A stretch of 54,421 nucleotides of DNA, counting the filler, from Basidioascus undulatus (Eukaryota): assembly GCA_000826855.1 (NCBI GenBank). It is 3 parts of 3 records of this genome, joined end to end, with 100 filler letters (N's around TTAATTAATTAA, not from the genome) between each part and the next. Parts side by side here need not be neighbours in the genome. Positions count along the whole stretch, not along the records: positions 1 to 18,093 come from JTLS01000487.1; 2 more parts are not named here. One strand, given 5' to 3'. The notes beneath the pieces were generated by a model. That model was not told where the DNA came from. It saw nothing but the letters and a program-made list of their open reading frames with translations, and did not search any database. Position numbers and translations under genes: made by a program. Positions 3,001 to 25,191 of this stretch are shown here, in pieces. Each line of letters starts with the position of its first letter. The first letter of the stretch is position 1.

Positions 3001-3598
3001 CTGCTGGGGCGCCCGGCGTGACGGACGTGGAGATGCTCGAGGCGGGGACATCGTCAACTGCACCGCCCGCGGACCCCTCGTTCGGTTCGAACGTCATCCC
3101 TACCCCGCAGGCATCCTCCCTCGGGCCAGTGCGTCTTGCTCGTTCTCCGTCACATACCCGCCGGAGCTGACTGAGCGTCGCATCTATCCTACGCAGACAC
3201 CTTCGCTTACAACCGGCGCTGTCCCCGGCACGCCCGGCCAAGACCACTCCCACCCGCTCTACGGCCTGGCCCCCTCCCGCCCCGCCGTCTCCTCCCTCCT
3301 CGCCCCCGAACCGACGCTCGTCGAGGCCGCCGTCGCTCTGCGTGAGCCCACCCCTCCTCCGCCGCCACCCCCCTTCATCCTCGACCCATCAGCATTCGCG
3401 CGCCTGCGGCAAACGCTCCGGAACGAGACTGCGCCGCTCGACGTAGAGCAGCTCGAGCAGCTGCGCGCGATGTGCTTGAGCGCCGTGTGGAGAAGGAGAA
3501 GCGAGTGGGACCGCTTGGGCCTCATGCAGGAGATGGAAGGGATCGTGCGAGAGTTTATCGGGGAGGTGCTAGAGGTCAGGGGCGAGGAAGGCGATTGA
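20..3598 (+). CDS. YTA7: AAA+ ATPase with bromodomain-like region (Yta7/ATAD2 family), multi-exon, 5'-partial
   Basis: Spliced segments read FFMRKGADCLSKWVGEAERQLRLLFEEAK...IIFFDEIDG|LAPVRSSKQEQIHASIVSTLLALMDGMDGRG|QIIVIGATNRPDAVDPALRRPGRFDRE. A degenerate second AAA domain and a bromodomain-like stretch (DIDLEKMHHNLYYDGYLTPQDFLDDIAKMVHNA) follow. Stop at 3598. Confidence 0.93.
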
Positions 3599-5198
3599 GT
3601 TGATTTGGGACTTGCTGGAGGGGGACTCGCATTGTTGATTGATACATTATCTGTTAGCTTGCTTGATGGTGTGTTGCTGCTGTCGAGTCAAGCACTCCGC
3701 GAGATGATCGCCGCTTGCTTGTGAGGCGCCCATGCGATGCTCGCGTGGGCCTGCCGCGTTGTAAAATGTCGAGCTCCTGGGGGCTGTTGTTCAACACGCA
3801 GATGTGCATGTTTGCTCCAACTTCATCACCGCACTAAGGTGGAGTATCGGCGGAGGAGGGTTCGGAGTCCCAACCTGCCGTGGTGTTGGCCTCGACTTCC
3901 CGGAGCAAGCTGCTGAGTGCGGACTGGCGTGTCTCTCTTGTTCAGACCACTTCACAACCATGGCTTGTCCAGCACATTTTCATTTTGCACTGTCGGTTGC
4001 AAGCACAACGAGGAGAGCGCGAGGTGTCGCCTCGTCCTGAAGCCAAAGACACACTAGACGGCATTCATCAAGCCGTTTGAGTTTGAGAAACGTAGACTTT
4101 AAAGATACTTGACAGACCTTACGCTGGGGCAACGATGGGACTGCGGAGTAGCAACGCGCCGTGCTGGTGTGTGGAAAGTCAGTATGCTGCTTCTGGCAGT
4201 TCTTTGGCGAGAGGGATTGCTATAGGTCTGTCCGTTTGAGGGACACCATATAACCTTATGGCCAATCGGAACAACCAGCCCAGCCCCCAGCGTGTCCATT
4301 TTCCGTGTTGTGCTCCCGATTCGCAGAAACGATGGGCAGCATTCAGAACCCACACATCGCTTCCCCCATTCTTCATGGTTAGATAAAGTCCTGGATTCTG
4401 TATTCCTATGCATTTTGGGCGGGTCGCTTGTGAGACGGGAGATCAGGATGGGGCGAAGAAGCTAGTTGAGGCTGGACACCCGCCATGTGGTGAGCGTGGC
4501 TTTGGAGATCTCCCGGCGGGCCTTGAGATGTATCGTGGTGTTCAGCAACCTTTGTCGGTAGTGCACAAGCGATTGAGGGATACAATGACAGAGGTGGGCA
4601 CGCTCATCGCTCCAAGGACGGCGAGTCACGCACGCTACGGTCGGACACAAGACCAACCCAGAGGAAAGGGCCGCGAGAGTGAGTGACCCAAACAATTTAG
4701 AAGCAATATCCTTTCATTCCGCAATCATCCTCGTGTTACAGTATGACCTATTCCCCGAAGCAGGTAGAAACAGTAGGCAGCGGCTGTCAGGCCCGTATGC
4801 TGTAAGGGGAATGCGGTTCTTGTAGACCAGCTGTAGTCAAATGATACTCCCCCTGTTTCCATGCTCCGTCAGTGCGGCGCTCATTAAATTAGACATGTCT
4901 GTGCAACATCTGCTCTCAGCCCTGGCGTTTGTCCGCACACTCGAGTCCGCAGAACGAGGACTGAAGGTTGGTCGATGCAGAGTAGCACCAGGGTCCAAGT
5001 TACAATAGGTTTATCATAAATCTGCAAGGAAGTGGGGTCATGAGCTTCAATAGCTGAGAATTGCATGGTATAACGCAAGCAGTTACAGGGGGTGCAGTGG
5101 CAGTCAACAGGCTGCCGGCCCGACGCTCGCGGTCGGGCTTCGTGTACCGAGCAAGCAATTGGCAGGGTACCTGGTGAGAGACATCAAGAGAGCAAAAA

Positions 5199-5271
5199 TG
5201 GACATTCCCGGAATTGAACCGGGGACCCCCTCAATGCGAATGAGATGTGATAGCCCCTACACCAAATGCCC
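5199..5271 (-). tRNA. tRNA-Ala(CGC), intronless
   Basis: Reverse complement GGGCATT...TCTCA TT CGC AT TGAGG...CCGG TTCAATT CCGGG AATGTCC A folds as a cloverleaf. It has the G3:U70 Ala identity pair and a downstream T-run terminator. Confidence 0.92.
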
Positions 5272-6970
5272 GTCGCACAAAGTTTTCTTTTGCGCTCCAA
5301 AATACATGCGTAACACCTTAGATTGAGCTAAACCGTTCAAACTATACCAGGCAAGATCACTGTAGGGTATTCGAGTTTGTTCACTTAGTGGCAGGAAGCA
5401 CGAAGGCTCAGTGTCGTTGCTGATGATCGGGAGACGGCATGAACTTCCTGAGGTGAGCGGCGTCCAAATTCAGGCCCGGCCAGTAAAAAGAAACACGGTC
5501 TAAAGAAGCCCATCATAAATCTTTAGATTTGCCTTGTCAGCAGCCTGTTAAAGCAGTTACTTGAGTGCAGCCGGCTTCACCAGAAACGAGACCGAAAGGA
5601 TCCTGCTCGCTGGCTTCACATTATTATAATGCAAAATGACATTATATCAACTGAAGAGTATGGGGCCCGTCAAAGCCTCATGATTTGTCTTCAAGGAGGG
5701 TGCAATCGACATGCTGCTTGCGAAGCACCGCAGTAACGACTGTATACCCGCCTGAGTAAAGAAGACTGCTGGAGGCGATGGAGCGTTGGACAACCCAAAT
5801 AGGACAGAATACACCCTTCATATCACATCCCCGTGCTGCAAAGTATCAGCATCGCACCAGAGCGCACAAGGCGACCTGCTTCTGTCGAGGACAGCCGGTC
5901 TGTGTTCGAGTGAAGAACACTGGAACCGTCATCTGCGGATTCTGTGTTTCTACATCATAGAGATTTAAATGATCTTGTGCAGAACCGTGTCTGCATTGAC
6001 TGTTCTCCGGCTTCATGACAATCTTCATCCTCTCACTTGAGTTGAACTGAGACCCCAGGGTGTTATTTGGGGGGGAGGGCGCTCCAAGTATATCCTTGAA
6101 GGGGAGATTGGGATGCGGCCGAGAACTGAGTCGACGCAGAACTCCAGCAGAAGACGCCCGTTATCTGCCAGCGAGCGTGGCATTGAAGTCCCTCTCAGCT
6201 CTCTGTAATCTGTCATGGTTTTCCGCAGTTCCCTTTCTTTATTCTCTTTAGAAACTTCGGATACTCAGTCAGTCAAACGAGGCGGGAGGCCGTTCGGCAG
6301 CACTGGGCGCAGTCTACCGCCACGACGAGGCCGCCGCTGCGCTGCTTCTCAACGACTTCGACCCCAAAACTTTTATTCTAACTGATAAATTTTAGCAATA
6401 TCAAAGATCTTTAGCCGTGCAATGTAGTGGTCTCCTGTGCAGAGCTGCAAGATACTGTGCAGTTCGCCACGCATTTACGAACCAACTTGATGACGGTGCG
6501 AGTCTTCGCTCTTTGCACTTTCCATCCACACTGTGTATTCAAGGAATTGATTCACTCCAAGTCCTTGCAATCGTACTCGCACTCACGCACCTTAATCTCT
6601 CGCCAACATGCCAGCACCGACTGGCGGAGATACCAGCATTGTCGTCCGCTTGCTGTCCTGGTTTGTTGGATCCACCAATTCTGAAGACAGCCTTGCATAT
6701 TGTGACAAAAGAGGAAACAGAAGGTTGAACGCATATTGTGCTGCCATGGTGAAGGAAACTGCTACTGCTGGCGGCACAGCGAGAGTGGCTGCTGTTGCAG
6801 GGGTGGCCTCTTTCTACTGCGGTGGTGACGTCTTCGGTTACCCACTCCTTACTTACGGTTATAGGTCTGCCGTGTATATAACATACTTAGCGTACGCGGT
6901 TTGGCGTGGTCGGACTCTCTGCCTTGCTCCGCCACACTCAAGACCCGCCTGCTCAGTGTTTGTGATCCGC

Positions 6971-7010
6971 CCTTCACCAACTTTCACCAACTTTCACCAA
7001 CCTTCACCAA
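6971..7010. repeat. 10-bp tandem repeat (CYTTCACCAA)x4
   Basis: ccttcaccaa ctttcaccaa ctttcaccaa ccttcaccaa, read directly. Confidence 0.9.
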
Positions 7011-7240
7011 TTGCCGCTGCGAGCTGCTGCCCAATGCTGCCTCATCTTAGCCGGTGTGGGGCGGTATCTCCTCCTCGCCTCGGCAACAGGCGGCGATGCT
7101 TAGATCTTGGGCGTGCGTGCCGAAATTATGGCACGCCAAGCCTTCCCCTCGAGCTCTCCCCTCAACGACTCCGATCTTTTGATACCCTTTACACCTCTCA
7201 ACTCTTCTTACCGACATCCACAGTTACTGGTTAACCTGCC

Positions 7241-10200
7241 ATGGCATACCATTCCTTGAAATCTCCAAACCCCAGCAGGCGGTCAAGCGCTGTCCCCCGC
7301 ACCGACTCGTCGCTTCTGACCCTCACGCCCTCTGAACGCTTCTGCGTTTGCTTGTCCATCCGTAACGGTGCTTGTTCGCTGAGCATCCACAACAGGCCCA
7401 ACCATCAGATTGGGGTGCAACTTATTTCGGTCCGGAGGCAGACGACGCTCTGCAGTACGTGTATGCGCCCTGGTCTCCGCTTTTGCGGTCGACTCACCTC
7501 AGAGCGACGTCCTCAGCAACCCGGATCCTCCCCAGGATCGGTACGATCGGCCATCAACATATTTGAAGATGTTTCTTACCCAGGTTACCTCACAGGAACA
7601 CTGATCAATCAGGCTCTATATTCACGTGGCGGGTTTTTGTGAATTACTTGGGCTTTTTGGTGTTGTTATCGCTGGTGATTGCAATGCTCCGGTATGTTCT
7701 GCCTGAGTTCCCCGTTTAAAAATTGAGCTGACGGTTGCCTTATCTGACTCTTTCTTTCAGTTCTGGGTACCCCATCCTCGACGACGTCCGGAACACACAG
7801 TAGTCAAACTTTGGCGGTTACAACCTCGGATTCATATGTTCATCAACGCGTCTGGGCAGGTTCCCGCATGCACTGGAATGAACAGGGTGAGCTCTCAAAA
7901 CCTACACCTAGACCGGGATGCTGGCACCCTCTTACAGGGCCACATCGGACTCCGACACGCCCGAAGAAGCAAAGACCAGGGCTGGTTTCGACGGGACTAA
8001 GTAGTACGTACTCGTCTTGAGCCTCCGAGCCTTGCGTGCATCGCTCACCAGTCTCTCGCTATACAACGAGCTTGTATTCGACGAGTCTTACGGCCGGACA
8101 TTCTGTCCGTGTGACGATTCGTACGGGAGGCGGTTGACTTGCATTACTGGTGCGTGTTGTCGTCCATCGCCTTGCAGCGTGGAACTGAGTGGAGTGGTGT
8201 AGGGGTAACAATGATCTCGAAGTGAGCCGCTTCGATTCATAGGGTTCTGAAACGGTTCTAAATGCGATATTGTAGTGGTACTCCCCCCGGCAAATCACAA
8301 CCCAAGGCGGTGCCTTGCGTCTCACCCTCGACGCGGTCTCTTCTCAAAACCTTGATTTCCAGGTAGTAACCCCTGTCTCCTCTCTTTCCTGAAAATCGAT
8401 CTCAGCGGTGTTTTTCCAGGGCGGATGATGACCACCTGGAACAAGTTCTGCTTCATTGGCGGTTACGTCAGCGCCAGCATCTCCATACCGGGCTCCTCGG
8501 ACGTCTATGGGGTAGGTCTCTCTGTAAGGACCCAATGGACTTGCCGCTTGATGGTCTGATGGTCTGGTTCCCATCACAGCTGTGGCCGGCGTTCTCTGAG
8601 TTTCCTTCGGCCCTGATCTTCCTTCGCTTTCCCGGAAACTCACATCTATGCATCCCCAAATAGGGACTATGTAAACGACTGTGCTCATCATCGAAAAGGT
8701 GTTTCGGTCTGACCTCCAGGGTGATTGCTTAGGGGCAACCTCGGACGTGCATGCTACGGTGCCACTCTGGAAGGTATGCTTGTCTCGTTTAGAACACTCA
8801 AAGGTTTCCTGCATAGTACTGACTGCGGCTACAGGAATATGGCAGTATTATTGTGTCAGTATTACAGAAGAACCGGGCACTGGCTGGTCCTGACCAACTT
8901 CGGGCCTAGGCTCCTGCGATGTCCGTGTACGTTGATGGCTTGCCTGATAATGTGCGCATTGTGCTCAAGCGTTTCTGGCCTATGTTACAGACCTTGAAGA
9001 ACCACTCCCTCGCTGGCCAGTACGCTCAATCATTGACCAGTTATTGACCAGCGTGGCACACGTAGCTCACCAGCGCTCGTTCTGCAGGCTATCCTGGCCT
9101 CTGAGTTTCCTTTCCGGACAACGGCTGTGTGTAATTTCTTTCTCAACCTCCCCGCATTGTTTCGAAGCTGATGGCATGTTGCGATCTTCGGTGGCCGCTG
9201 CACTTGCGAGGGCGAGCTGCAATCCGGCCTCAAGCACTCTGATGGGACTTACGTGGGCCGCAGTGTCCGGAGATTGACGTGTAAGTTGCCCTGGAACACT
9301 ACCCCGTTGTTCGGTCAACGTATTGACAAATACAACTGTACCTGTGCAGAATCGAGGCTCATGTAAGCCGGTTTGACCGCGTCGCTGAACGAGACGTACT
9401 GACGCAGCACACGTTGCCTTAGGTTGAAGTTGACAAGCGTGAAGACAAGTCGGCAACTTCTGTCTGTACCGATGTCTTGCTGACTGTTGGGGGAACAGGC
9501 TTTGGTTCTATGTCTGGTAAGCAAATCTGGTTTGCATCTGATAGCGTCGACGCCCTCACACACCGCCGTCCTGTAGGGCAATTTGCTCCTTTCAGTAGGG
9601 TTTGATAGAGATACTGCACGCTGCTCATTGCTAACCGCGAGCTCGATACACAGATGCGGAGTACAAGTGGTATAACAGCACGATCACCATGAGTAAGTGA
9701 ACGAAAGTGTTCTACAAAGCTAGTCGCTGATCAGAGCTCAACGTGCCCCGCCAACAGCCAACCCGTAAGTGGATGTCTCACCTATTCCGTTTGGTTGAGA
9801 GAATTGAAACTGGAGTCGTACACGGAGGATGACTGGTTCAACGTGAGTGACTCGTGGTCAAGGGATGCTCACTCCTGCTGATGTCGCTGTCATAACGCAG
9901 ACGTACCAAGGCAAGTGGCGCATCGCACAAGCTTCCCAATCTGTTGCTAATTGTATGCCATTGGCCCTACAAGTGGACAGCAGCAAATGTGTGTCACTGG
10001 CCTATTCACGGCTTTCGCATGTTGACGAGTGTGGCGGTCAAGACCGATCAGACGGCGTAACAGTACAGCGGTGGCGGCTTTTCCTCGTACGTCCGAGAAA
10101 ATTCCGTCCATTTTTCGAGCTCTGGTCTTACCCGTCCGTACCGTTTCACAGGTACGGGTAAGTTATTACACGCACTTGCAAAAGTAGGACGGTGTGGGTT

Positions 10201-11200
10201 AACTCTGGCGCTGCCAAGGATGGAATACGTCCCCAGCACCTCCGATGACTCCTACATTGAGTGGCATGTCAACGAGAATATGCGGTGGTTGGTGTGTGCG
10301 TTCGCATTGCTCGACGTAAAAGTGCAGTGCTGATTGGCCTGACATCCGATGTTCTGAAGGTGCCGGGACTGTCACTCTCCTTTCTACTCTCTGTGTCCGG
10401 ACTCCCCCGCTTGAACAACATAATCTTATGCGATGATTCAGGTTTGCGTTTACAGCCATGGCCATTGGCCCAGACGAAGAGGTCCTCATCAGTGCTCGCC
10501 CCATTCCGTACGAGCCTATGTACATGCTCCTGAGTGCTCAGTCTCCACTTTGCTTTCGCTGACACTGAAGTTCACGTATAGACCAAGCAATTGTTACAAG
10601 TACGTCCTGCGTCCGCACCAGATTGTCTGTGGACATACTCACGCTCGGTCACCCTCTCGTTCGCTTGCAGCTTCGGTACGTCTACCTGCTCCTCCATCCT
10701 CAAAAAACCTGCGGGGAGCACTGGATCACGTTTACCTTGCAGCTCAAATCTACTGGGACGGTCTGGCCGACTTCTGGCCGACCGTGATAAGCATCATCTG
10801 GGTCCGCGTGGTAAGTATTTCCTGCTACACCTGCGGCTTCTGAGGTTTACCTACACTGCCATGCTGATCGTGCTTCGTACCACACTACCAGCCCGTCGGC
10901 AAGCGCAACAACGGCTGCAGCCCGCCGGGCTACTGCACTGCGGACTAGTGCGTTGTCTCTTCACGCCATGGCGGTAGGCGTACATGCTGACCTCTCTCAT
11001 GCACCGCCCTGTAGCATCGAGCAGTTGAAGGAAAGATACCTGGTAAGCATTGCGGTGCTGCTCTTCAGGGATGCCGTGCTGACCTTGGTGGATGTACAGA
11101 ACCCGCACTTGACAACGTGAGCAGCGGTTGCAGACTGCGCCCGGATACTCTACTAACTGCATTGCCGAACACTGTAAGGCTTAATTCTCTCATTCTCCCA
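7241..11200 (+). pseudogene. KRE6: KRE6/SKN1-family beta-glucan synthesis-associated GH16 protein, pseudogene
   Basis: Family motifs occur in the expected order across many exons: GYPIL..GGYNLG/INASGQVP (~7765-7870), ELVF-DE..GRTFCPCDD/EAVDLHYW (~8070-8150), NNDLE|WYSPRQITT, MMTTWNKFCFIGGY (~8425-8465), GNLGRACYGATLEG (~8735), LSFLSGQRL, EIDV|IEA (~9270-9360), ISARPIPYEPMY (~10490), IWVRV, NNGCSPPGYCTAD. There is an in-frame TAG at 7801 and several frameshifts. Both ends are approximate. Confidence 0.85.
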
Positions 11201-12445
11201 CCGCGAATGTACTGAATTTCTTTCTGAAACCGCAGCGGGCAGCAGCCAGTCAAGGTGCGCACTGCTCAGTACACGACCACAAGCAGACTATTGACTCAAC
11301 CGCTTTAACCTGCCTAGAACGCCCTCCTGAACCAGGACGACTCGAAGTGCCAGACCGCGCTCAAGACTTCCCCTTCCGACTTGCTTGGCCGGACGGGTCC
11401 CGACGGCGCGTCCGACACGATCCAGTGAGGGGGCGATTGGTCCTCTTCAGCGGTGTGGAATCTCCCATTTTGGGACAGCATTACAGAGCTACGGACTCTA
11501 GAAAATTTTCGGTCTTTTTCTGTAAACAACGCGCCTCGCATGTTAAGCTATTTTCGCTGTTCGAAAGCGCAATCAACCTCGCTTGAGCTTTGCCGGCAGC
11601 TTAACGTCCAAGACTCTGAGAATCGGTACCGTGCCTGATATATTACTTCCAGGAATCTGTTCAACCTGTTGCCTCCCAAGATTCCCGAAGAAGCTCGAGC
11701 ATGCCTTCAGGGAGGGCTGTATCGACGCGGTGGGTCCCAAGGACATGCGGGAGCTGGGGTGTACCGCAAGGGCATAGTCATTCAACGCGACGCTGAGCTT
11801 GGATTCATTTTGGCCCGTGGTTTGGAAAGGAACCGGTTGAGGTATAGTGGGCTTGCGCAGAAATCTGCAGCATGCGGGTCCTGCCCGCGTTGAGTCCCAA
11901 GTATCGGGAGGACTGCCGGAGCGTCGATGCTTTCGAATCCCGGCTCTATATGCCCTTGGCTTCTCGAAAATTTAGTGTTGCGATATTCTTAGTTCTTATC
12001 TGCTTGATAGTAACTCTCGCTAAACTTGTCGTGCAATGGCACAGAAAGACGGTCTTCCAAGTTTTTCTTTCCGCCAGTCACGAGGAGCTCAATACCGGGT
12101 CCCTGTTTCTTGTCACGAAATTGTTGATTTTTATACAGCCGTTAACTGACTTCGTGATTGATCTATCGATCTAACGAGGGCAAGTTGCGGCAAGTTGATC
12201 TTTACTGAATGGGAGCGGGCCGCTGAAGCCCGCCTGTCCATTTGACCTCTACCTTCTTTAGGCAATGAGCGCCGCTTGTCCCGTTAACTCCCTTACAACC
12301 TCTTCGGAGCCTGTGGCTCGGGTTACTAGGAAGCCGCCGTCGCGCCGCCTTAGCGCCATTCCAGGAGACTTTTCTTCCTCCTCCCTAACCTCTTCGTCGA
12401 AAGCAACCCACTCATAATCAGAAACGGCCTACACAGTACGCGGGG

Positions 12446-13045
12446 ATGAATTCAGACTTCGACTATACTTCTGCGCTGGCGCAGAACATCTATGTGGGTG
12501 TTATTTGTTCTCGTGTTGAGGGCGAGCTACCCCTCCGACCTTTCCGTGGGACACAGACGTCTCGGCCCCGCGACGATTTCAACTCTTCCTCCTCGTTCGA
12601 GCCTTGCGATACTGCACAGGGCGCAGACCTTTCTTACGGCTTTGATGCGGAACTTGGATTCGATCACCCCTGCGCTCCGTGGCAGACAGCCCATGTTCGC
12701 CTTTCGCATCGATCGTTCGCCGTCGAGGAGCTGACCGCTCCACAATAATGAAACCAGATGTACCTTCCCAAAAATATATTCCCTTTCAGTCCAGAATCCC
12801 ATTCGCCATATGCTTACTGCACTGGCACCCTCCCGTCCGACTTCGGCGCGATACCAGCGGACGGCAGTCTTCGCGCCTACGGCTACCCATCCCCAAACGA
12901 TCCTCTTCCAGATTTCCACGACACGTACCCAGCCGAGCCCCATCCTGCCAATCTCAGCGCCGAGCCGTACTCGCCTTCGACCTCCAGCACGCCTACTCCG
13001 GCGCACGCCTCCTACGCTCTCGACTCCTCCGCGCAGCGGGCGGCG
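12446..13045 (+). CDS. hypothetical protein, 5' portion (Pro/Ser/Tyr-rich); 3' end unresolved
   Basis: ATG at 12446, GT-AG intron ~12494-12556, and a second probable intron ending at 12757. The protein-like frame YLPKNIFPFSPESHSPYAYC...YALDSSAQR then runs into antisense UPF3 sequence. Confidence 0.45.
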
Positions 13046-14692
13046 CACACTCCGCGCTCCCTCCCCCTCCCCCGCCTCTTTCTCCGCCGCCACCTCCTTG
13101 CGCCTGACCAGGTGCCGCACCGTCGTTCGCTTTCACACCCCGCCCGCCGCCCTTCCCTCCGCGACCTCCACCGCGTCCGCCGCGCCCGCCTTGGGGCTTC
13201 GGGCCAGTCGGCGGCGCCCTCGGACCGGCAGGTGGTTGCGCGGACGAGGCCGCCTTGGGCCCGGAGGGGGGAGCGGAAGGTATAGAAGGTGGAACGGGGG
13301 CAGCTCCGGGGCCGGCTGGAGCAGCGGCCGGCGTGGAAGGGCGAGCGAGGATCGTGAGCGGGCTGGTGGGAAGGGCAGGAGTCGTCGATGTCGTGAGCTT
13401 CTTCGTCTTGCACTTCTTGCCTGCAGTCGGACCGGACGGCGGGCCCTTTTTGTCGGCCATCGGCGCAGGCACCTCGCCATTCGCGGCAGCAGCGGCCGCG
13501 GCGGCCGCCTCGCGTGCCTTCTTCGCCGCGCGCTTCTCGCCTTTCCCAAACACATCTCGTCAGTCCGACCACAGTATTCGAAGAGCATGCCGAGACGCAC
13601 CTCTCGTCTTGCCCTTCTTCACCGGCGCACCGTCGCCAGTCGCGGCGCCCACAGTCTTAGCAAGCGCGTCCGCGGCTGGATCAACAGCCTTCTTCTTGTC
13701 CTTCTTCGAGCGCGAGCCGCTGCCGGACGCCGCACGCAGCGCCTTGTTCTTCGCCTTGGACGCCTCCTTCTTCGCCAGGAGGTGCTCGAGCAGCGGCGTC
13801 ATCTTGGGCTTCTCCATGGGGCCTGCAGTGGAACTTCGGCATGAGAATAGTTTCAAAAGGTCGGGTAGGAAAATGAAGCGCACCTGCTCTTTCGGCTTCG
13901 AAGTCCGGCTTCGTCGGGAGCGCTTCGAGCAGCGTCAGGAACGACTTGTAGTCCTCATCTGCGGAAGACAGCGCATTCAATATCAGGTTTCCCATTGGAA
14001 AGACAACAGGAAACACACCTTCGTCGATCGTTCCCTGTCTGTAGTCCTTCTTTTTGCTTGCACTGGGCGTCTTTTGGAAAGGGGCGAACTCGACCGAAGC
14101 ACGACTCTCGCGGCCTGACCGAACCAGCATGAGCTAATGGAAATTTAGAAAAGAAGCTGATTCACACACCTTGCTTGTCCCGGAACAGGTGTCCGTCGAA
14201 GGCTTGGTGGAACGCGACGATGTGCTCGGGCTCCTTGAACAGGACGTACGCCCGCGAAGCGATGTTCTCCTTGTTCGAGTTGCTAGCCCACCATCGCGGT
14301 CAGCCCGAGACCGGCCTGATACATACACATGGTCGTGCTCACCTTGCTCTCAGCTTCCCAGGCCAATACGCCTTCCAGCTCGCTGTCCCATCATTGACCC
14401 ACTGCGCCGCGCTCTCCCAGAACACGGCCTCCGGCAGATTCGGCGGGAGGGACCCAATGACGACCTTCGTCCGCAGCTGCTCGGGTTGCGGCTGCGAGCG
14501 GTTGTTCGTCTTCTTTGGGCCGGTCGGCGGTGCCGCTGCAGGCTTGGGCTGCTGCTGCTGCTTAGAGGGAGTCGGGGCTGCAGGCGGAGCGGGGGAAGCG
14601 AGAGCCTTGGGACCCGTGGGGATGGCTGTCGGCGCGATAGTCGGTGGAGAAGAGTCTAGTGCGTGGCCGTTCGGCGGTACGGTGCTCGACAT
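12993..14692 (-). CDS. UPF3: nonsense-mediated decay factor Upf3 (Smg4/UPF3 RRM), multi-exon
   Basis: LRTKVVIGSLPPNLPEAVFW...YWPGK|SRAYVLFKEPEHIVAFHQAFDGHLFRDKQG|RESRASVEFAPFQKTP...DYRQGTIDE|DEDYKSFL...TPLLEHL is the Smg4_UPF3 pattern. ATG at 14692. The true 3' end is uncertain. Confidence 0.88.
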
Positions 14693-14921
14693 TCTGAGCG
14701 GGCGTGCCTGTGCCCGATGGGGCGGCGAGGAGGAGATATCGGAAGGGCAAGGAGCGTGGCGCGTGCGCGCCGAAGTCCCGGTTGAATCGATTTCTAATGA
14801 GGGTAGTAACAAAGATTAGTCTGGCTAGTATTGCCGGCACTTCGCGCGCGCGCTCCTCAGCCTCAATCATCCATCATCTCCCATCTCACGCTCGCACACC
14901 CACCCACTCTTTACGCCCAGC
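14693..14921. promoter_or_regulatory. probable bidirectional promoter between UPF3 and SYF2
   Basis: Only 229 bp separate the divergent start codons at 14692 (-) and 14922 (+). Confidence 0.55.
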
Positions 14922-16052
14922 ATGCCCCGCAAGTCGACTCGTTCACAGAAGCAGGATGAGCTTGAACAGGCTCCTGCCGCGGAGCCGGAGGTCGCCGAGC
15001 CTGCGCATGCGAAGGCGGAGGAGGCAGGCAGTGAGCCGCCCGACGCCCCCGACCCCGAGCCCAGCCCCGTCGTGATGGACAAGGGCAAGGGCAAGGGCAA
15101 GGGCAAGGCCGTCGAGGAGCCAGCGGTGGAAGCGGAAGAGGACGAGGAGGAGCGGGAGGATGGGGATGGGGAGGAAGCGGACCAGTCGGACAGCTCGGGC
15201 GTAGCGTCGAGTTCGGGCTCGGGGTCGATGGCGCAGCGGATGGCGAAGCTGAAGGAGTTGCGCATACGCATGGTACGCACCATTTCCGCACTCCATATAG
15301 GCCGTCGAGGACGCTCACGTTTGCTTCCCCCGCACACAGCAAAAGTCCACGGCCGAGAACCGCACGGCGCTGCACGTCGAACACAACACGACGCGCAACC
15401 AGGTCCGCGCGGCGCAGAAGGCCGAGAAGGCCGCCAAGCTCGCAGCGGTCATCATGGAGAAGCGCGAGGCGGCGGAGGAAGGATCGGACGTGGAGCGCAG
15501 GAAGGCGTGGGAGTACAGCATCGAGGACAGCGAGAGGTGGGACAAGAAGCAGGCGAAGAAGGAGCGGAGGGCCCAGTTCGAGTTTACCGGTGCGCCGCAT
15601 CTCCGCATACTCCTGGGTTGTGCACGTTCCCGAAGACTGAAGAGAGTGTTGGGCGCACGCAGACTACGACGATGTCGCTCGCCGCAAGTACAAGAAGGAC
15701 ATTGACCAGATCAAGCCCGACCTCGCTGCGTACAACCGGCAGAAGGAAATCACGCTCGGCCTCGCACCCGGTACACTGACCGGCAACTCAGTCACGGCGC
15801 ACTCGGACAAGGCCAAGGCGAGCGAGATGGACCTCTACCGCGACTCGAACAGCCTCGTCTACGCCGACCACAAGCCGTCGCAGGACGACATTGACCGCGT
15901 CGTCGGCAAGCTCAACCAGGAGTACGTGTTGCTCGCTTCTGACACCGTGGAGGATGATGGCTTACGTTGGTTCGTTGCGTTGCGCTGCAGCATCGACAAG
16001 AAGACAAAGCGGTCGCGGAAGCGCAACGAGGACGAGGGCGATGTTACGTACA
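14922..16052 (+). CDS. SYF2: pre-mRNA splicing factor Syf2; final exon not found
   Basis: MAQRMAKLKELRIRM|...ERRKAWEYSIEDSERWDKK...EFT|DYDDVARRKYKKDIDQIKPDLAAY...LYRDSNSLVYADHKPSQDDIDRVVGKL|...DEGDVTY matches the SYF2 family. The expected continuation (INERN...) is absent. Confidence 0.88.
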
Positions 16053-18023
16053 GTGCGTTCCGGTAGACTTCGCTTCTTATGGGAGATGATTGTTTTGGTA
16101 CGGATTGCGGATGCAGCATGTAGTATTTATACCTTTGCGCGTGGCTGACGGCTGCCTCGTCGCCTGAATCCTTGGGGGGGGCTTTCTCTATAGATGTTCC
16201 TTTACCTCGGTGTTACCCGGTACTGGTGTTCGTAAAGCAAGATTCAAGGAGCGCACCTCTGGCGGAAGCGTGAAAGTAAGCATAAAAGATTGCAGGGAGC
16301 GTTGTCGAGTGTGAGGTCGGGAGGAATGGCAAGGGTGAACGTTGCAGCACTGAGAATCATCATCGTTCCAGCTCTGCCCGATATCCAGAGTTTCTGAACC
16401 CAGAATAACTACAATGCGCTTACGGAGTACCAATCCCATCGCTTCGCAAGACGGTGCGCTCCAGGACTTCGTTGCGGTACGGCACCAGTCGAGTCGGGTA
16501 GTCCACGCTCATCCCGTCAAACCCTCTGTAGGTGTGCACCATACCGGGGAAGGCGTCATCCAGCTCAATGCGCCGCTCCGCCGGCTCCCCCTCCGCGTCC
16601 AGCAGCGTGAGCCTCTTGGTTCACGGCCCGCATTTGCGGGGCTCGATCGTTCCGATCAGCCGCCCGTGTACGAAGACCTGAACTTTGTCTGTACTTTCGG
16701 AGCGGTATTCGGCGAGACTGTCCACCATGAGAGGATGCACCGTGATCTTAGGCACTGGGAGGGTCACTGTGTTCAACGGTTACAGTATGAAAACAGGGTG
16801 GACGAGCAGGCTCACCGGCTGTAGACTGTGCAGAGTCGTCGGAAACACGCTTGTGCTTCTTCTCGGTAAGACATGAAAGCATCTCGACTTGAGCGATGGT
16901 GAGGGTAGAGGTGAACCGCAGCTCGGTGCTGGAAAGGCGGATCAGATGCGAGTTGTCAATGATTCTGGACGAAGATAATCAAATAACATTATCATGTAGG
17001 AAACATCCGCCGTGAACATCAGGGAATCATGACCCATGACTCTTCTGGCATGAGCGTTTCAGGTGTATCCGCTTTCCGCGTGGGCGCGCCTCATATCGCT
17101 CGATGTGGGTAGCTGCTTTTACAGCTGGCAGGGTGATACGCTCATCGATCTCCCGCCTCACCTTCCTCTGCGCCACTTGACTCTTTACTTCCGCTATGAG
17201 GACGTATTCCCCTGCCGACCCAACGGCAGGATGTTTTCCGCAACTGTCTGCGTCCTTGGAGCAGCCTGGACTCCCTCAAGTTGGTGCTGGGCTCAAAGCG
17301 GGGGGAGGTGGACGTGTACCTTGCCAATGGGATCCTGATTTCGGTCAGCCAGGAAGAGGGGTATGCGGGAATCAGGGACGTTGTTGAGATACTCTAGGGG
17401 ATCCGGTGCCGGTATGGGTCTCTTAGCTCTTGAGATATCTGATGTAACCGGAGCCTCTGCTGTGCTAAAGCCTCGAAAATGACACTGTTAAATGACCTCT
17501 CAACTTGACTGTTGAACGTTGATTTCGGAAGCCCTTGTGCCCTTTCATGCATCCGTTTGCCAGGGAACGCCGTTTGCCAATCCCTGCATTTTCTTCGCGC
17601 CCCCTTACGCCGATGAATAATAGCTTTCAATGGTTGAACGGGGCTCTTTCCCGCCCAACCAGGCCGGGAAACGATCGAGTCTGTTACCGTGTGTGTTCAG
17701 ATGATTTCGCCAGCTGCTTGACATGCTTACTTGCCGGCACCGCCACTGCACCGATATTGGAATTTTATTGAATATGATAGTAGTGTCGATAAATGTATAT
17801 AGAGAACTGATTCATATTATTTTCAAGCAAGCGAATGGGCTGGACTGTCGGACATGCACGAACCATCCTTGAGCACACTCAAAGAGCCTCTCAGCTCAAA
17901 AAGTACTCTCTTGAGTCTTTTCTTGATTTCCTTAATGATTACAGAATTCGTTCGAGACCCATTACGCACTCCTAGCAAAAGGAGCCTCGGTTATCATCAC
18001 CCAGCGTAAGCGAGTGGTAGTCG

Positions 18024-18093
18024 AGATCAGGGGGTTGCAGGTTCGATCCCTGCGTCGGTCACGGCCGGCTGGCTCAATGGTAGAGTATCTGAC
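18024..18093 (+). tRNA. tRNA halves in permuted order (3' half then 5' half), Trp-like, truncated by contig end
   Basis: 18026-18061 = A TCAGG GGGTT GCAGG TTCGATC CCTGC GTCGGTC A. 18063-18093 = GGCCGGC TG GCTC AATGGTA GAGT A TCTGA C. The acceptor stem (GGCCGGC/GTCGGTC) and anticodon stem (TCTGA/TCAGG) pair between the halves. The anticodon falls in the gap, so Trp is inferred from the D-arm and A73. Confidence 0.7.
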
Positions 18094-18193
18094 NNNNNNN
18101 NNNNNNNNNNNNNNNNNNNNNNNNNNNNNNNNNNNNNTTAATTAATTAANNNNNNNNNNNNNNNNNNNNNNNNNNNNNNNNNNNNNNNNNNNN
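18094..18193. other. artificial contig-joining linker (N44-TTAATTAATTAA-N44)
   Basis: An exactly 100-nt block with a six-frame stop palindrome at 18138-18149. Confidence 0.97.
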
Positions 18194-18271
18194 CCCCCTT
18201 TCCCCCCGGCATTTTCCCTTCTTCCCCCTACATACCATTCGAACACGCCCCTGAACCAGTCCGACCTCACC

Positions 18272-21200
18272 ATGGAGTCTCTGTGAGTCTGACGTTTGCA
18301 CTGATAGTTCGTACTCTCCCTGTTTCTTGGAAGTTCTCCATCGGCTATTTGGCGGGAGCTGGGGAATGGTTGTGCCGCTCTCTGGAAGCCCTGCTGACCC
18401 TCCCGCTCGTCCTTCAGCCGTCAACTCGGACTCGACTCCCCGCAGTCCTCGCCCCGCTTCTACGCACCCCCTCGCCGCGTCAAGAAACCCATCGAGATAC
18501 TTTCCTCTTCCCAGCCCGAGTCCGAGTCGGACGCCGAGTCGAACGTCCCGATTCGTCGCACCGCCGCCGCCGCGAAGGGGCGCAAGCTCCGCGTGCCCGA
18601 TAGCGACGAGGAGGAAGACGAGCAGGACGAGCAGGACGAGCAGGACGAGCAGGAGGACAAGCAGGAGTCTGGCGCGGAGGAGGGCGACGAGTCGTTCGTC
18701 ACTGCGGCGCCTTCGCGCACGCCCGGTCGGCCGGTCGCTCGGTGGGCCGCGGTGGTCGATAGCGAGGAGGAGGGGGACGAGGAAGAAGAGGAGCAGGAGC
18801 AGGAGGTGGCCGAGCAAAGGAAGAGCAGCGAGGACGAGGGCGAGGACGAGGGCAGTCTTGCGGCGGAGGATGACGAGGCCCCGCGCGAGAGCCGCGCCGT
18901 GTCGGTTGACCCGCTCGACGAGGTCGTCAAGACCATGCAGCGGGTCGAGCTGAAGAGCGATGACGAGGAGGTGGAAGTGGTTGAGAAAGCGTGCGTAACC
19001 TCCCTCTATCTCCTTCCAAGCTATCTCCCTTCATACTCATCCGCCTGTTTCCATTACCCTCAGCGCTCCCAAGGCCGCCCAGCCCCCATCGCAACCGCGG
19101 GCGAACAAGTCCTTTGATGGCAGCAATTTGGCCTCGCACTCCATCGACCTGACCGACTCGTAAGCCCTCTGTCTCGAGCCTTTCCCAATTTGCGCAATCT
19201 CATGACCGGAATGCAGGCCCATCTCCGTGTCGAGCCGAGCCTCACCCGCGCCCAAGGCTGTCTTCGGACGCCCAAGCGCTCTCGAGTCGCCCATCAGGCC
19301 GCTACCCTCCTTCCGCAAGAACACCGCGCTTCAGCCTTCCGCTTCAATCAACGTCCCCTCCGCCTCTACCGCGAACCCCTTCCTCCCTCCCCTTCCTCCC
19401 CCAACCAACGCCCACCTGTGGGACCCGTCCTTTAACCGCCAGCCCTCGAAGAGCTACTACCGCCCGCCCGTCCCCATCGCGAAGCCGCAAAGGCCGAACC
19501 TCATTGACGCCTGCGACGACTTTGTCGCGCGTGGGACGCGCCCGGGCGACCTTCTCAACTGGCGCGAGCCGCGCCCCGCGGCGGACCTGCCGGACGCGGA
19601 CGAGTACGCAGAGCGCGTGAGCCCGGACGAGGCGCAGCGCCACCTCCAGGAGATGCTCGGCGGCGCGATGGCGGACATGGAGGAAGTCGACTTGAGCACC
19701 GTGAGCAACACGGTCGAGGGCATGAGCGCCATCACCCTCATGCCCCACCAGATCCGCGGCGTCGCATGGATGAAGGACCGAGAGAAGGGAAAGCAGAACA
19801 AGAATGGCGGGATCTTGGCGGACGATGCGAGTGACGCTTTCTCATTTCGCTATGGTCTATGATCCGACAGCTGAAGAGGGGTGGGAGAATAGATGGGTCT
19901 CGGAAAGACCGTCCAGACGCTCGCAACGATCGTCGGTCATACGCCCGACGTGGACCAGAAAGAGAGATACGGCAAGAGCTCGCTGTGCGTTCCTCATCGC
20001 CCGTCTGCGCAACGCGCAAATTGCTGATGCCGTCGTGGTACACAGCATCGTCACGCCCGTCTCGGTCATGAAGCAGTGGGAGGACGAGGTCAAGAAGAAA
20101 TGCGATAATCTGCGCGTTCTCGTCCACCACGGGCCCTCGCGTTCCAAGGGTACGTCGCTATTCACCTCCATGCCTGTGCCGGTAGATGCTATCGCTTACA
20201 TCCCCAATGCAGACGCTTGCAAGTTCAAGAACTATGATGTTGTCGTACGTCGCTCATGAGGGTGTAGCGACCTTGCCGAGGGCGCGGAGTGACAGGACCT
20301 TCCCTTCGCAGATCACCTCGTACAACACCATTGTTTCCGAGCACACGGTGTTCACCGAGCAGTCGTCCCAGTACAGGGGCTCGGACTCGGACTCGGACTC
20401 GGACTCGGACTCGGTCAGCTTCGGCAAGAGCGTCATGGGCAAGAAGAAGGCAAAGAAGGGCGGGTGCGCGTTGTTCGAGGCGACGTGGTGGCGCATCGTG
20501 CTGGGTACGTTCGCTTCCTTGCGGCAGGCGCACTGCATGAGAGCTAATGAGCGCGCATCACAGACGAGGCGCAGAACATCAAGAACAGGACGGCCAAGAT
20601 GTCGATCGGGTGCGCGGCGCTTGACGGCAAGTTCCGGTGGTGCCTTACCGGTGCGTTGGCCGTATGCGTGAATGTTGATTGAGCAGGACAAGCTGATGTG
20701 AGTTATAAATGCGCGATAGGCACGCCAATCCAGAACTCGGTCGACGAGCTGTACCCGCTTCTTCGCTTCCTTCGCTTCAAGCCGTTCAACGATTGGGACG
20801 ATTTCAAGACGCGCATCTCGCAGCCGATGAAGCAGGGCCGGGTCAAGATCGCCATGAAGCGCCTGCAGGTTCGTCTTTTCCCGAGCCGACCATGCCGTTT
20901 CCTTGCTGCGACACTCACCCGTATCAACGCAGGTCATCCTGAAGGCGATCCACATCCGGCGCCTCAAGACGGACCTCAACGACGACGGCTCGCCACTCGT
21001 CAAGCTCCCCGGGCGCCACGTCGACATCGTCCACTGCGAGTTCGACGAGGACGAGCAGGCGTTCTACGACGCGATTCGCGAGAAGGCGGACCTGACGCTC
21101 AGCAAGTTCATCAAGGACGGCACGCTCAACAACAACTACACCAGCGTCCTCACGATGCTGCTGCGGCTGCGTCAAGGTTGGTTGTGATGGTTCTGCAGCA

Positions 21201-22574
21201 TCTCGTGACGTGGACTGATGCTTTGAGATTATGCAGCTTGCGATCATCCGGGCCTCGTCACCAAGGTGTGTCGGAGAGCCGCGTCTTTCTGCTTGCTATC
21301 AGGCTGTTGCTGACTCTTGGGTTCTGCTACTGTAGAGCTTCACCGCGGACGAGGTCGCGGGCCACCAGCCGGCTGCCAAGAACGGCGCCGAAGCGTCCAA
21401 GGACGCGGACGAGCTCGCCGACATGCTCTCCGGCATGGGCTTCAAGAACAAGAACCAGGACTTGGTTGTGGACAAGCAAGTGTGGGTAACTTCCCATCTC
21501 TCGCTGCATTCCCCTGGTTCAGTCCCTCTGAAAGATGCGCCCCATTTGACGAACAGCAAGGACATGGCGAACCGGTACACGCGCCGCAAGTCGGGCGGGC
21601 ACGCCAACACGATGCCCGACAGCGCGAAGGTCCGCAAGACGCTCGAGATCCTGGCCGAGATCCGGGAGGCGGAGGACGAGGAGGGCGAGCGCATGAACGA
21701 GAAGACCATCATCTTCTCGCAATTCGTCAGTCTCGTGCTTGCGTTGAACGTGCCCTTGGCTGACTCCGCGTCGCTGTGCCGTCCAGACCTCGATGCTCGA
21801 TATCCTCGAGCCGTTCGTCAAGCAGGCCGGGTACAAGTCTGTTCGCTGTGAGTCGGTTCCATGGTTGGCTGAACTCGCCGAGTTGCTTACGCGCGCGTGG
21901 CTTTCGTAGACGATGGCTCGATGAACACTGTCGAGCGCCAGTACGTCTTGGACAAGATCAAGAGCGACTCGAGGACTACCGGTGCGCATCTTCTCCCAGT
22001 TCTCGTGCATTCCACGCAGACTCGTTGACGAGTGTCGGTGGGCGCAGTCATCTTCATCTCGTTCAAGGCTGGCTCGACGGGCCTCAACCTGACCTGCTGC
22101 TCGCGGGTCATCCTCGTCGACTGCTGGTGGAAGTGAGTGTATTGTTTCTAGGGATGAAAGGAAAGGTTCCTGCCGCTGACGTTGGCGACGTGCGCAGCCC
22201 GGCGCTCGAGGACCAGGCGTTCGACCGCGCGCATCGGTCAGTCTAGCATCGGACTTGTGATGCTCTCCCGCAGGTGCTGATACCCCTTTTCGGTTTCCCC
22301 AGATACGGCCAGACGCGGGATGTCGAGATCTATAAGCTTGCCGTGCCATACACGGTGGAGGACCGCATCCTCGAGGTTCGTCTGTCTCGCATCCCTAACC
22401 ATGAGAACCCCGACTAACCCTCCATGCGCCGCCCCCAAACAGCTCCAGGACAACAAGCGCAAGATCGCCGAGGCCGCGCTCAGCGGCAAAGCGATCAACA
22501 ACAAGCTCGGCATGGCCGAGATGGTCAACCTGTTCAAGCACACCGCGCGCGACGACGACGAGGATGACGACTGA
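18272..22574 (+). CDS. SNF2-family ATPase, RAD5/RAD16/ULS1-like clade, multi-exon, no RING evident
   Basis: Acidic N-terminus, then LMPHQIRGVAWM..GGILADD|MGLGKTVQTL, WWRIVL|DEAQNIKN, WCLT|GTPIQN, LLRLRQ|ACDHP, KTIIFSQF, ISFKAGSTGLNLT, PALEDQAFDRAHR|YGQTRDV. ATG at 18272, stop at 22574. Confidence 0.9.
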
Positions 22575-25191
22575 GCGGTTCGCAATACGGGATTCTTCTC
22601 TGCATTCGATTTCCTCTTCATTCTCTTTTGGCTGCGCATTTTGGCTGCGCATTTTGAACAATAACCGCTCATACGTCGACTGGATACTCTGCCCACACTG
22701 CTTACATATGATACCCCCGCGCTCTCGCTGCATTTCATTGCTGTTACTTTGCTCGCTTTTGACCGTCTGTTATCGAGGCTTGGGTGTCGATCAACGATCG
22801 AGCCGGGGCGTCATTCCGCATGGCGAGTAATACAGCTCGCATGGGCAAAGTGCTGCAGCGGTGCAGTGGGGAGTGACCCTCGGCCAGGACCTTTCCATAT
22901 TTTCACTCGCAGTTGACGGCAGAACGGTTCAACGTGCATTTATGCAGAGGCAAAAGGCACACGTATGAAAGGATGAAGAAGTGACTGAAACAAGAATTAC
23001 TACATGGCCATAGTCTTCAACTTCACACAGCACATACTACACTATTCTCAAATTGCCACATAACTGAAAGCATCGGCAAGCTCAGCAAGGGCGTCGTCCT
23101 CGGTGTAATCCCCGCCATAGCGAACAAGCTGAACTCGCTCATCTCGGTGGATGTCATGCACACCCCTCGCAGAATCTAGATTTCGCCCTCCTTCACGAGC
23201 CTGGTATGGGGTGTATTTATTAGAGTATGTGTTTGATGACTGAAGAGACTTACAGGTGCCGGCTCGGAAGGAGGGTACCCCTCAGATGGGCGGCGTCCAG
23301 TTGGATAACATTCGTAGGATTGGAGTCGTCGTCGTCTAGAAAACGGGCCACCTTCGGTCAGCCGTTTCCGATCAAGAACAAGCACTTTGAAATATCAGAC
23401 CTCCGTGTGCAGCAATGAGATAACGATAGAAAGGCCCAGCGATCACCCTGTACGTATCCGTCTTGAGTCGGTCTCGGAAAGACTTGCCAAGGAGCGTGTC
23501 GCCAATGCGTTCGAGTATTTGTCACTATCGGGAGAGTCGCTACAATGCGTTATTTGGGTATGGGCTTGATGGCGATGACTTCAGCCGACGTCCCACGAAA
23601 TGGAGGCCCTCTGAAGTTGTATTAAATTCAGCAGGCCTGTGAAGGCTTCGCATTCAATGAAAACGTACTGGGAACGCCACCCAAGCTCCGTTGCTTTGGG
23701 TCTCGCCGTGGTGCACGCTCCGCTGCCTTCTCCAGCTTGACGGCCTCAGGCCCTGCGTAAATGCAAAAGAATCCAGCGGTGCGAGAATCCGACCCGTCGA
23801 CGATAGACACGTAAAGGTGGGCCCAGGTCTAGTGCTTGTGCCAGAGCACTGCGGCTGTGTCAGCCCAGTTGGCATCATAGGAAAGAGACATAAACCCATG
23901 GCTCGTGTCCGAGCCGCTGACATGGCCGTAATACGCGTCATATCGCTCGTCTTCTCCTTTCGGGAGATGACGAAGCCACCAGCCACATGGCTAGAGCGCA
24001 GACCGTCTGGGCTTGGGCCCTCCTCGTGCAACCGGAAGAGCCAGCGGGCATGACCGGTGGACTCAGAAAGGTATTCGAAAAGGGCAGTGTTGTCGAGAAA
24101 ACAAACACGTCAGCTCCAGTAGAAAGACGCCCTGCTAATTTCAAATTACTTACCTTTTTGAGCTCAACGGAACTTGCGCATATTTCCTTCCCGCAACGCG
24201 GACTCAGAATTGTGTGCAACCGGTTGCCAGCGATAGTTCGGTTCCGTACAAGGACGGATGCTGCCGCGCGCCTGGCTGCAGACAGAGGGCTCAGATGTGC
24301 CCACCCATCGTCCATAAGATTTTGTTTGTTAATGACAAGGAAAGCATGTACCATCTTGCGAGGTGAACAACAAGACAACTGCCTTGCCTGAGTGTATTGG
24401 CGGCACGCGTTCGCAGTGCAGGCCTGAGAAGAATCGATACAGTCATTCACGAAGATGACATGAGGAGTACCTTGGTACAGAATGGTTAAAATGCATACAC
24501 TTTTGCTCTTTCTTCACTCCAACAGGGGCCGTGAACTCAAGCTCTCGACCAGTGAACGCCTCGTTCGACCCCAATAGTGTGCTCACCATGTCTCCATGCA
24601 CCTTCTTCCCAGCTGCTTCAAGGTGTTCTAAGACCCTCCCCTCCGTTATATTACATAGGCTTATCAATATAAGTTTGTTGCCCATATTAAAAAATTTACA
24701 CCAAAACACAGTCGGAGATTCATTAGGGACCTCTTCACCCCCGCCGCTTTCTCCCGTGTCCCAAGCTCACGACAAGCATGTCTGGGAAACACAGCATCTT
24801 CTCTTCAGTTACAGAAGAAGGTTAAACAAATCCAATTACTTTTATGGTGCTGAAAACTTCAACCCATTCATTCTATGGGTTGGATGGGCATGTGTTTCGA
24901 ACAAGGTTCTCTCAGCGGTGGGATTCGGTCTAGGTTGGAGCTGCATGGGAATTATGAAACCTCAAGTGTTTACAAGAGCCAGATTGTTTTTATCGCACGA
25001 GTCCCTCCTAATGGCATGCTTGATTGAGTGTAGTGCTGTGGTGCACCGCAGAAGTGTAGCGCCAGGCTGGCGTGACCGGGACGGGGACCCACGGTCGCGT
25101 TTCTCGAAATTGCCCTTCGACGCGCGCGAACGCGTCTTCCTTCCTGCCACCACCGATCCCTCGCCGCTCTGCTCTTCCTCCCCAATCATCC

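Follow-up and report, generated by a model that had tools for sequence, protein, structure and literature searches.

Can a fungus carry transfer RNA (tRNA) genes whose two halves stand in reverse order, the 3′ half ahead of the 5′ half? The question is raised by the end of the first assembly piece in a stretch of 54,421 nucleotides (nt) from Basidioascus undulatus (GCA_000826855.1), called the window below, for which a sequence-only reading had put forward a candidate circularly permuted tRNA-Trp gene. Permuted tRNA genes have until now been oddities known from a handful of algae, a nucleomorph, and a single archaeon; the available parts of two reviews place them in Cyanidioschyzon merolae, prasinophyte green algae, the nucleomorph of Bigelowiella natans, and Thermofilum pendens (PMC3978253; PMC13578239). 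Our answer is tentative: with a confidence a little short of even, the locus is taken as one of about 25 scattered, circularly permuted tRNA genes that make up a family, each broken between tRNA positions 37 and 38. This reading gains real support from a sister copy and from the pattern of conservation, both being properties of the DNA, and the locus itself stands as a candidate.

The window consists of three assembly pieces, 1–18093, 18194–36251, and 36352–54421 (18093, 18058, and 18070 bases, respectively). They are connected by two artificial joints without strand or biological meaning, 18094–18193 and 36252–36351, each composed of N44-TTAATTAATTAA-N44. Since the pieces are separate assembly units, no feature is to be read across either joint.

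The tRNA's 3′ half (positions 38–73) occupies 18026–18061 on the plus strand. It comprises A38, the 3′ strand of the anticodon stem TCAGG (39–43), the variable loop GGGTT, the T arm GCAGG/TTCGATC/CCTGC, the 3′ strand of the acceptor stem GTCGGTC (66–72), and the discriminator A73. A single C at 18062 (plus strand), established by reading, by script, and by unitig depths, forms the intervening sequence between A73 and G1. The 5′ half (positions 1–32; 18063–18093, plus strand) follows with the acceptor 5′ strand GGCCGGC (1–7), TG, the D arm GCTC/AATGGTA/GAGT, A26, the 5′ strand of the anticodon stem TCTGA (27–31), and C32, where it is cut by the piece end; as had been noticed earlier, the contig stops at 18093, before the anticodon, and the joint follows. 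The proposed layout of 3′ half, single C, and 5′ half was reproduced letter for letter by reading and by script. The earlier pair counts hold on recounting: 7/7 in the acceptor stem (2 G:U) and 5/5 in the anticodon stem (1 U:G). To these are added 4/4 pairs in the D stem (1 G:U) and 5/5 in the T stem; U8, G18G19, the TTC of the T loop, and the A15:T48 pair are all in place. The break falls at 37/38, the canonical intron position, to which it had been mapped before.

No 5′ half lies within 4 kb upstream of the 3′ half, in agreement with the sequence-only reading. ARAGORN, allowing introns of up to 3000 nt, returned 0 genes in 14094–18093, and none of the 6 heptamers in this interval able to pair 7/7 with GTCGGTC was followed by a D arm. 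In native order, ARAGORN reported 3 genes in the window and none at 18026–18093; when the halves were reordered by script with NNNNN at positions 33–37, one tRNA cloverleaf was obtained. The order is that of a circularly permuted tRNA gene, with the 3′ half upstream on the same strand and the acceptor ends joined by an intervening sequence. The 19-mer combining T arm and acceptor strand occurs once in the window versus 0.01 expected. The B-box word GGTTCGATCCC (18040–18050) had 0 mismatches, and the A-box word (18070–18080) had 1.

Junction depth and dispersed copies

Two sequencing runs from two studies matched the window, X1 (2014) and X2 (2025), and a third, X3, derives from the same sample as X2; the fraction of sampled words of 16500–18093 present was 1.00 in X1, 1.00 in X2, and 0.08 in X3. 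X3 has the size of a transcriptome, yet none of these runs is recorded as RNA, and X3 is given no weight as to expression. X1 and X2 are possible sources of the window DNA and therefore not independent of it, yet they are still two data sets. Contigs of X1, X2, and X3 were aligned to 17400–18093 (24453 records read for X1 and 16194 for X2), the result comprising 19 listed piece matches, 86 further ones, and 15 loose ends beyond those listed. Contigs with at least 31 letters on each side of the junction were regarded as bridging. Copy numbers were estimated from the depths of individual unitigs; summed bin depths were left aside because overlapping unitigs are counted repeatedly in them.

As the piece ends inside a repetitive feature, the junction might be an artefact of assembly or of a chimeric read at the contig end, a worry already voiced in the sequence-only reading. 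This is hardly credible now, and the explanation is nearly excluded, even though X1 and X2 are not fully independent. Exact junction 31-mers occurred at approximately 10–16 times the single-copy depth in contigs of both runs, that is, at depths of 175–650 in two studies of 2014 and 2025. The flank of the window copy is single-copy: its X1 contig (record 1) has a depth of 18.3 and runs to 18038. The X1 unitig covering 18032–18084 (record 8) showed 0 mismatches at a depth of 298 (~16 copies), and that covering 18032–18087 (record 7) showed 1 mismatch at a depth of 175 (~10 copies). The corresponding X2 unitigs had depths of 650 (18032–18073, record 16, ~15 copies) and 473 (18032–18087, record 15, ~11 copies) against 32–47 for long contigs. 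These short unitigs fall below the bridging rule, and all their 31-mers derive from reads. Moreover, long contigs hold a sister junction internally: one sister locus (X1 record 5, 4220 nt; X2 record 12, 18542 nt) satisfies the bridging rule, having 39 letters on one side of the junction and 31 on the other, and spans 18023–18093 with 5 mismatches.

The exact junction is present in about 25 dispersed copies, a family in place of the single gene assumed at first. From approximately 18000 on, 51 contigs stack up in each run, and those with parts unlike the window numbered 18 of the 51 in X1 and 13 of the 51 in X2. Among the matches listed, loose ends before 18002–18016 were found in at least nine X1 contigs and at least seven X2 contigs. 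Because the upstream flanks differ in at least nine contigs, the copies are considered dispersed; flanks of two or three contigs at a shared boundary agreed only at 0.61–0.68. Another sister (X1 record 6, X2 record 13) matches from 18031 on only; the sequence before this point, 2.5 kb in X1 and 50 kb in X2, is unlike that of the window.

Upstream of the tRNA part, two leader segments can be distinguished on the plus strand. The 11-nt segment TGGTAGTCGAG (18015–18025) is shared by sisters and resembles the 3′ end of an intron. The segment 17993–18014 is variable and could be the region where RNA polymerase III (Pol III) starts; sister matches begin at 17993–18016, and a CACC lies at 17998–18001. 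The contig of the window flank and three sister contigs lose locus specificity between 18009 and 18025. By eye, CACC and GTAAGC recur in the loose ends of the sisters as in the window, displaced by indels, so that the homology appears to decay gradually upstream, without a sharp edge. The flanks look alignable for about 30 nt further up, again by eye, with TTGTCACC shared by two X2 flanks. Sister flanks are AT-rich approximately 25 nt ahead of CACC, and the four normal tRNA genes of the window are likewise AT-rich upstream. An A-box-like word at 18007–18017 had 2 mismatches to the consensus. In the window alone, the leader was also considered as a decayed 5′ half and this was rejected: local alignment gave TGGTAG only, a score also reached in 938 of the 2000 shuffles and in 211 of the 390 windows taken upstream.

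With about 25 copies in differing flanks, a number usual for minor repeat families of fungi, the family might also be a dispersed, non-decoding tRNA-derived repeat, whether resembling a short interspersed nuclear element (SINE), segmental, or made of dead copies. It would stem from a tandem or circular tRNA template and have spread afterwards; its permuted order would be an accident of that origin, and its RNA would not be matured. We consider this rather unlikely. The additional ~30 nt shared between flanks would suit such a repeat. So would a 93-nt X3 unitig (record 17), which reads 18054–18077 and then 18015–18083, a closed cycle of 63 nt (63 + 30) joining the D-loop TGGTAG to TCGAG-A38; in the window, TGGTAG stands as a direct repeat at 18015–18020 and 18078–18083, 63 nt apart. 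The cycle could mean that slippage has duplicated the unit in tandem in some of the copies, or it could have arisen as an artefact of copying. The A73-C-G1 junction could likewise be a template switch onto a tRNA end bearing one C, and an origin by reverse transcription is among the published models for permuted tRNA genes (PMC3978253).

The pattern of conservation points the other way. The block shared exactly extends from position 44 (18032) through the junction to position 23 or 26 (18084/18087); only the anticodon arm lies outside this letter-perfect part, which takes in the T and D arms and the two acceptor strands along with the C. This core is perfect in approximately 16 copies while the leaders nearby differ; in dead copies evolving neutrally, decay would be expected to be even. 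Every tertiary position is intact, and upstream homology fades over boundaries from 17993 to 18016 in place of the sharp edge of an element. To judge from these alignments, a perfect core beside decaying leaders is the kind of pattern that selection or gene conversion acting on an RNA gene creates, unlike dead repeats.

Sister copy beyond position 18090 and splice-motif fit

One contig in each of X1 and X2 diverges from the window after 18090 and continues, as read by hand, with A-A-C-T-A-C-G-A-C-T-T-T-T-T-T. Set beside the G-A-C of the window at 18091–18093, it differs once, at position 30. This sister comprises C32, U33, an ACG triplet, A37, a trailer of a single C, and a run of six Ts (T6); its positions 32–37 joined to A38 make the canonical loop CU-ACG-AA. 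The anticodon, short trailer, and T-run predicted for a permuted gene are therefore seen in a sister copy past 18090. An X3 unitig (record 18) covering 18054–18093 ends 5 nt beyond 18093, which is position 37.

The T6 also bears on the repeat. The locus resembles fungal tRNA-derived SINEs in being dispersed, of Pol III type, tRNA-related, and present in tens of copies. It differs in the inverted order of the visible boxes (B before A), in the absence of a visible body or A-rich tail, in the terminator placed directly after the tRNA part (one copy), and in the perfect core. The sole visible 3′ end has T6 immediately after an anticodon-type loop, without a body or tail.

Another explanation concerns the direction in which the locus continues. 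A complete, normally ordered tRNA gene might begin at 18063, with a partial duplicate (an intron end plus a 3′ half) left 1 nt upstream; the family would then consist of ordinary genes, each with such a remnant in tow. We regard this as distinctly unlikely. The window copy stops at C32, so a normal continuation is possible at the window locus itself. Green algae offer a parallel: tRNA genes with introns repeated in tandem, and one permuted gene accompanied by an additional 5′ half, are described there as possible evolutionary intermediates (PMC3978253). In the sister, on the other hand, T6 begins two nt past the anticodon-type triplet, and Pol III would hardly read through it into a 3′ half; the head-to-tail tandem that the sequence-only reading had also entertained is thereby made unlikely, if less firmly so for the window locus. 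The joint table contains no connection that leads out of the 5′ half into another 3′ half, a weak point because the table also missed the two-piece record of X3. A remnant 1 nt upstream would, in addition, leave the real gene without an upstream promoter region of its own.

The identity of the tRNA is only partly that suggested earlier. The D arm, variable loop, and T stem presumably resemble those of yeast tRNA-Trp; the sole visible anticodon, that of the sister, is ACG (Arg) and not CCA. For the window copy we also expect ACG, holding this loosely, because it is the only anticodon seen, it fits the leader better, and the copy number suits a major Arg family more than Trp.

With an ordinary intron at 37/38, the pair between position 32 and intron position −3 closes a 3-nt bulge that holds the 3′ cut, four pairs involve positions 32–35, and the 5′ cut lies in a second 3-nt bulge (36, 37 | +1). 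G18023 occupies −3, three nt before A38, and could pair with C32 by hand alignment; as the sequence-only reading had pointed out, the introns of the window also have a purine at −3, and to this an A at −2 can be added. The introns compared were those of tRNA-Gln (12 nt, ending AAT) and tRNA-Asp (11 nt, ending GAC), while the candidate leader ends in G-A-G. Positions 32–35 of the sister (C, U, A, C), facing 18023–18020 (G, C, T, G), form 3/4 pairs by hand; the same count gives 3/4 for the Gln intron, 2/4 for the Asp intron, and 2/4 for a CCA anticodon. In the hand-made pairing of the leader with the sister trailer, both cut sites fall in 3-nt bulges. The outer helix consists only of U:A, U:G, and U:G and is weak because the trailer is merely C plus Us. 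The earlier suggestion that TGG (18015–18017) pairs with a CCA anticodon had to be dropped, since in a hand alignment this pairing does not keep to the register of the standard motif.

The ordinary tRNA genes of the window show some peculiarities of their own. tRNA-Asp(GTC) (33259–33341, plus strand; 47.7 bits in Rfam) was missed by ARAGORN under default settings and showed an 11-nt intron at 37/38 once introns were allowed. Two tRNA-Gln(TTG) genes on the minus strand (46059–46145 and 47653–47739) lie 1.6 kb apart, and their exons differ by one base in the D loop; ARAGORN reported a 12-nt intron in the gene at 47653–47739 and none in that at 46059–46145, and the two genes are unlike in the central part of the intron region.

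An Rfam search of 17500–18093 by E-value threshold gave 4 matches. The RNA family tRNA (RF00005) covered the 5′ half only, at 15.9 bits (E 2.3), and did not reach its gathering score of 29; the four ordinary tRNA genes of the window scored 47.7–54.5 bits. The best match was YrlA (RF02553), a Y RNA-like and permuted-tRNA-like RNA of bacteria and phages, at 18007–18093 (35.8 bits, E 3.7e-6, model positions 1–88 of 114). The locus might accordingly encode a Pol III tRNA mimic of the YrlA kind, approximately 100–110 nt long, with a capped acceptor stem and paired ends, which would never be opened and would bind tRNA-handling proteins. The match covers the T arm, the closed acceptor hairpin, and the D arm in that order, and the locus, like YrlA, ends on the anticodon side. 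RNAfold pairs the leader GUC-G-AGAU with AUCUGAC, and the sister trailer can pair with the leader at 18014–18027 in 10 positions by hand. We nevertheless find such a mimic very improbable. Its score lies below the YrlA gathering score of 69, and the match is built on generic tRNA arms. Unlike YrlA, the locus has a eukaryote-like host and no visible long terminal Ro-binding stem, and the sister keeps the loop half C32-U33-NNN-A37 of anticodon type and ends at once. The 37/38 break and the purine at −3 would be required for splicing and not for mimicry.

Proposed maturation, precedents, and weight of evidence

If the locus is a permuted tRNA gene, its expression may be envisaged as follows. Pol III would start approximately 25–35 nt upstream of 18026 and produce a transcript composed of the leader, the 3′ half (38–73), one C, and the 5′ half (1–37), stopping in a T-run 1–2 nt after position 37. 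The halves would fold into a normal cloverleaf, the single C linking the acceptor ends. An intron 3′ end would be replaced by the final 11 nt of the leader, with G at −3 pairing with C32 and the cut site held in a 3-nt bulge. The tRNA-splicing endonuclease would then remove leader and trailer, and tRNA ligase would join A37 to A38. Cleavage by ribonuclease P (RNase P) before G1 would leave A73-C, so that C18062 could become C74 of the mature tRNA and the CCA-adding enzyme would add only C and A. Should RNase P act first, the intermediate would be a two-piece tRNA with normal ends; should splicing come first, a 74-nt circle would be opened later by RNase P. In Saccharomyces cerevisiae, splicing acts on end-matured precursors in the cytoplasm, which suits the order with RNase P first. 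A circular intermediate is the form described for algae (PMC3978253).

In a fuller form of this reading, the fungus would decode a whole codon family, probably Arg CGN via ACG/ICG and otherwise Trp, with about 25 permuted genes, using RNase P, ordinary splicing enzymes, a two-piece or 74-nt circular intermediate, and the spacer C as C74. We advance this fuller proposal with hesitation, as something that may be the case but has somewhat less than an even chance.

As in known permuted genes, the 3′ half comes first on the same strand, the acceptor ends are joined, the break lies at 37/38, the leader looks like an intron end, CCA is not encoded, and a T-stretch follows the 5′ half, here seen in the sister copy. 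The differences are the fungus-like host and the approximately 25 near-identical copies. Algal permuted tRNA genes are mostly single-copy. The two permuted genes of Thermofilum are single-copy as well, 37/38 is the commonest break among green-algal and nucleomorph permuted genes, and the parts described for known genes are a leader, the 3′ half, an intervening sequence of 1–74 bp, the 5′ half, a trailer, a TATA-like upstream sequence, and a T-stretch (PMC3978253). The 1-nt spacer of the present locus comes without an encoded CCA and with a 2-nt loop, in contrast to the 1-nt case of Thermofilum, in which CCA is encoded. Internal A and B boxes would be expected of the present host, unlike the hosts of known permuted genes; in these, permuted genes have been linked to TATA-dependent, TFIIIC-free transcription (PMC3978253).

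Compared with ordinary fungal genes having 37/38 introns (Gln and Asp of the window), the locus would be cut at identical positions and likewise has its purine at −3 and its A at −2. The enzymes expected would be those of ordinary introns, the Sen endonuclease and a Trl1-type ligase. Unlike in ordinary intron-containing genes, the “intron” is open here, its 3′ part being the leader and its 5′ part the trailer, and the acceptor ends are joined. Yeasts possess dimeric tRNA genes (Arg-Asp in S. cerevisiae and Ser-Met in Schizosaccharomyces pombe) in which the units, a few nt apart, follow one another head to tail and are co-transcribed by Pol III. The locus shares with them two tRNA units placed head to tail with a short spacer; it differs in that a 5′ half is missing from the upstream unit, only 1 nt serves as spacer, and the downstream unit of the sister stops after the anticodon loop.

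Several points weigh against a permuted gene at this locus. The window copy ends at C32, and positions 33–37 lie past the piece end. That the T-run contig also carries a 3′ half and the C upstream is something we infer, these parts falling outside the matches listed, and this sister has A at position 30, which is mispaired with C40 unless its own 3′ half differs. The 1-nt spacer makes a 2-nt acceptor loop, RNAfold opens G1:C72, and the folding energies are no better than those of shuffled sequences (z 0.50 and −0.13) and uninformative. Fungal tRNA transcription depends on TFIIIC, the B box (18040–18050) is placed ahead of the A box (18070–18080), and no clear TATA-like stretch was seen within 50 nt upstream of the window copy. 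A B-then-A order is described as ill-suited to TFIIIC, and the processing of a 1-nt spacer as an open question even for Thermofilum (PMC3978253). The ~30 nt over which sister flanks look alignable further upstream suggest a duplicated unit exceeding the size of the RNA, and the cyclic X3 unitig points to tandem-repeat behaviour. Approximately 25 copies are many for a tRNA family, for Trp too. Finally, a literature search judged largely by titles turned up no permuted tRNA gene of a fungus or other opisthokont, and this lack of a fungal precedent for a working permuted gene counts in favour of the repeat. In its available part, the 2014 review mentions fungi only regarding TATA boxes (PMC3978253), and the available part of a 2026 EMBO J review names only red and green algae and nucleomorphs (PMC13578239).

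If the permuted reading is true, opisthokonts would have their first permuted tRNA genes, with them perhaps the first case beyond algae and archaea, and no multi-copy permuted family would be older in the record of any organism. It would mean that the permuted pathway is within reach of the usual opisthokont enzymes (Sen, Trl1, RNase P, and the CCA enzyme), that Pol III can use a B-then-A box order, and that a major tRNA family can exist wholly in permuted form. The origin of such genes could then be studied in a kind of host that is amenable to genetics; a hint of an origin by tandem duplication comes from the leader and from the 63-nt repeat signal. Should the family be a repeat instead, it would still be unusual, being a permuted tRNA module that ends in a terminator and has stayed letter-perfect in many copies.

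External searches and other features of the window

The exact 29-nt junction had 0 matches in metagenomes, 0 in the genome contig collection, and 0 in the viral contig collection. A relaxed pattern of T arm, gap, and D arm hit 2 metagenomic loci, each with a Thr gene directly behind a Ser gene in a dense array of prokaryote or phage type; they were set aside as irrelevant. The arrays themselves contain 11 tRNA genes (L001, 1–1307) and 7 tRNA genes (L002, 1–1248), mostly with 3–8 nt spacers. The only literature match to strings of the window was an unrelated aptamer scaffold, which was likewise discarded.

Approximately the first 75 bases of the third piece (36352–36430, plus strand) resemble a fragment of large-subunit ribosomal RNA, a tentative assignment, as Rfam gave 0 matches on 36352–38400 at E up to 0.01. 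Three other long open reading frames of the window matched 0 Pfam families. Open frames at 1–3600 (plus strand) resemble an intron-split gene with IIFFDEIDG near the piece start and a long acidic or low-complexity tail, which may encode an AAA-type ATPase. The first piece itself starts with a run of 19 Gs (window 1–19), probably a sequencing or assembly end artefact.

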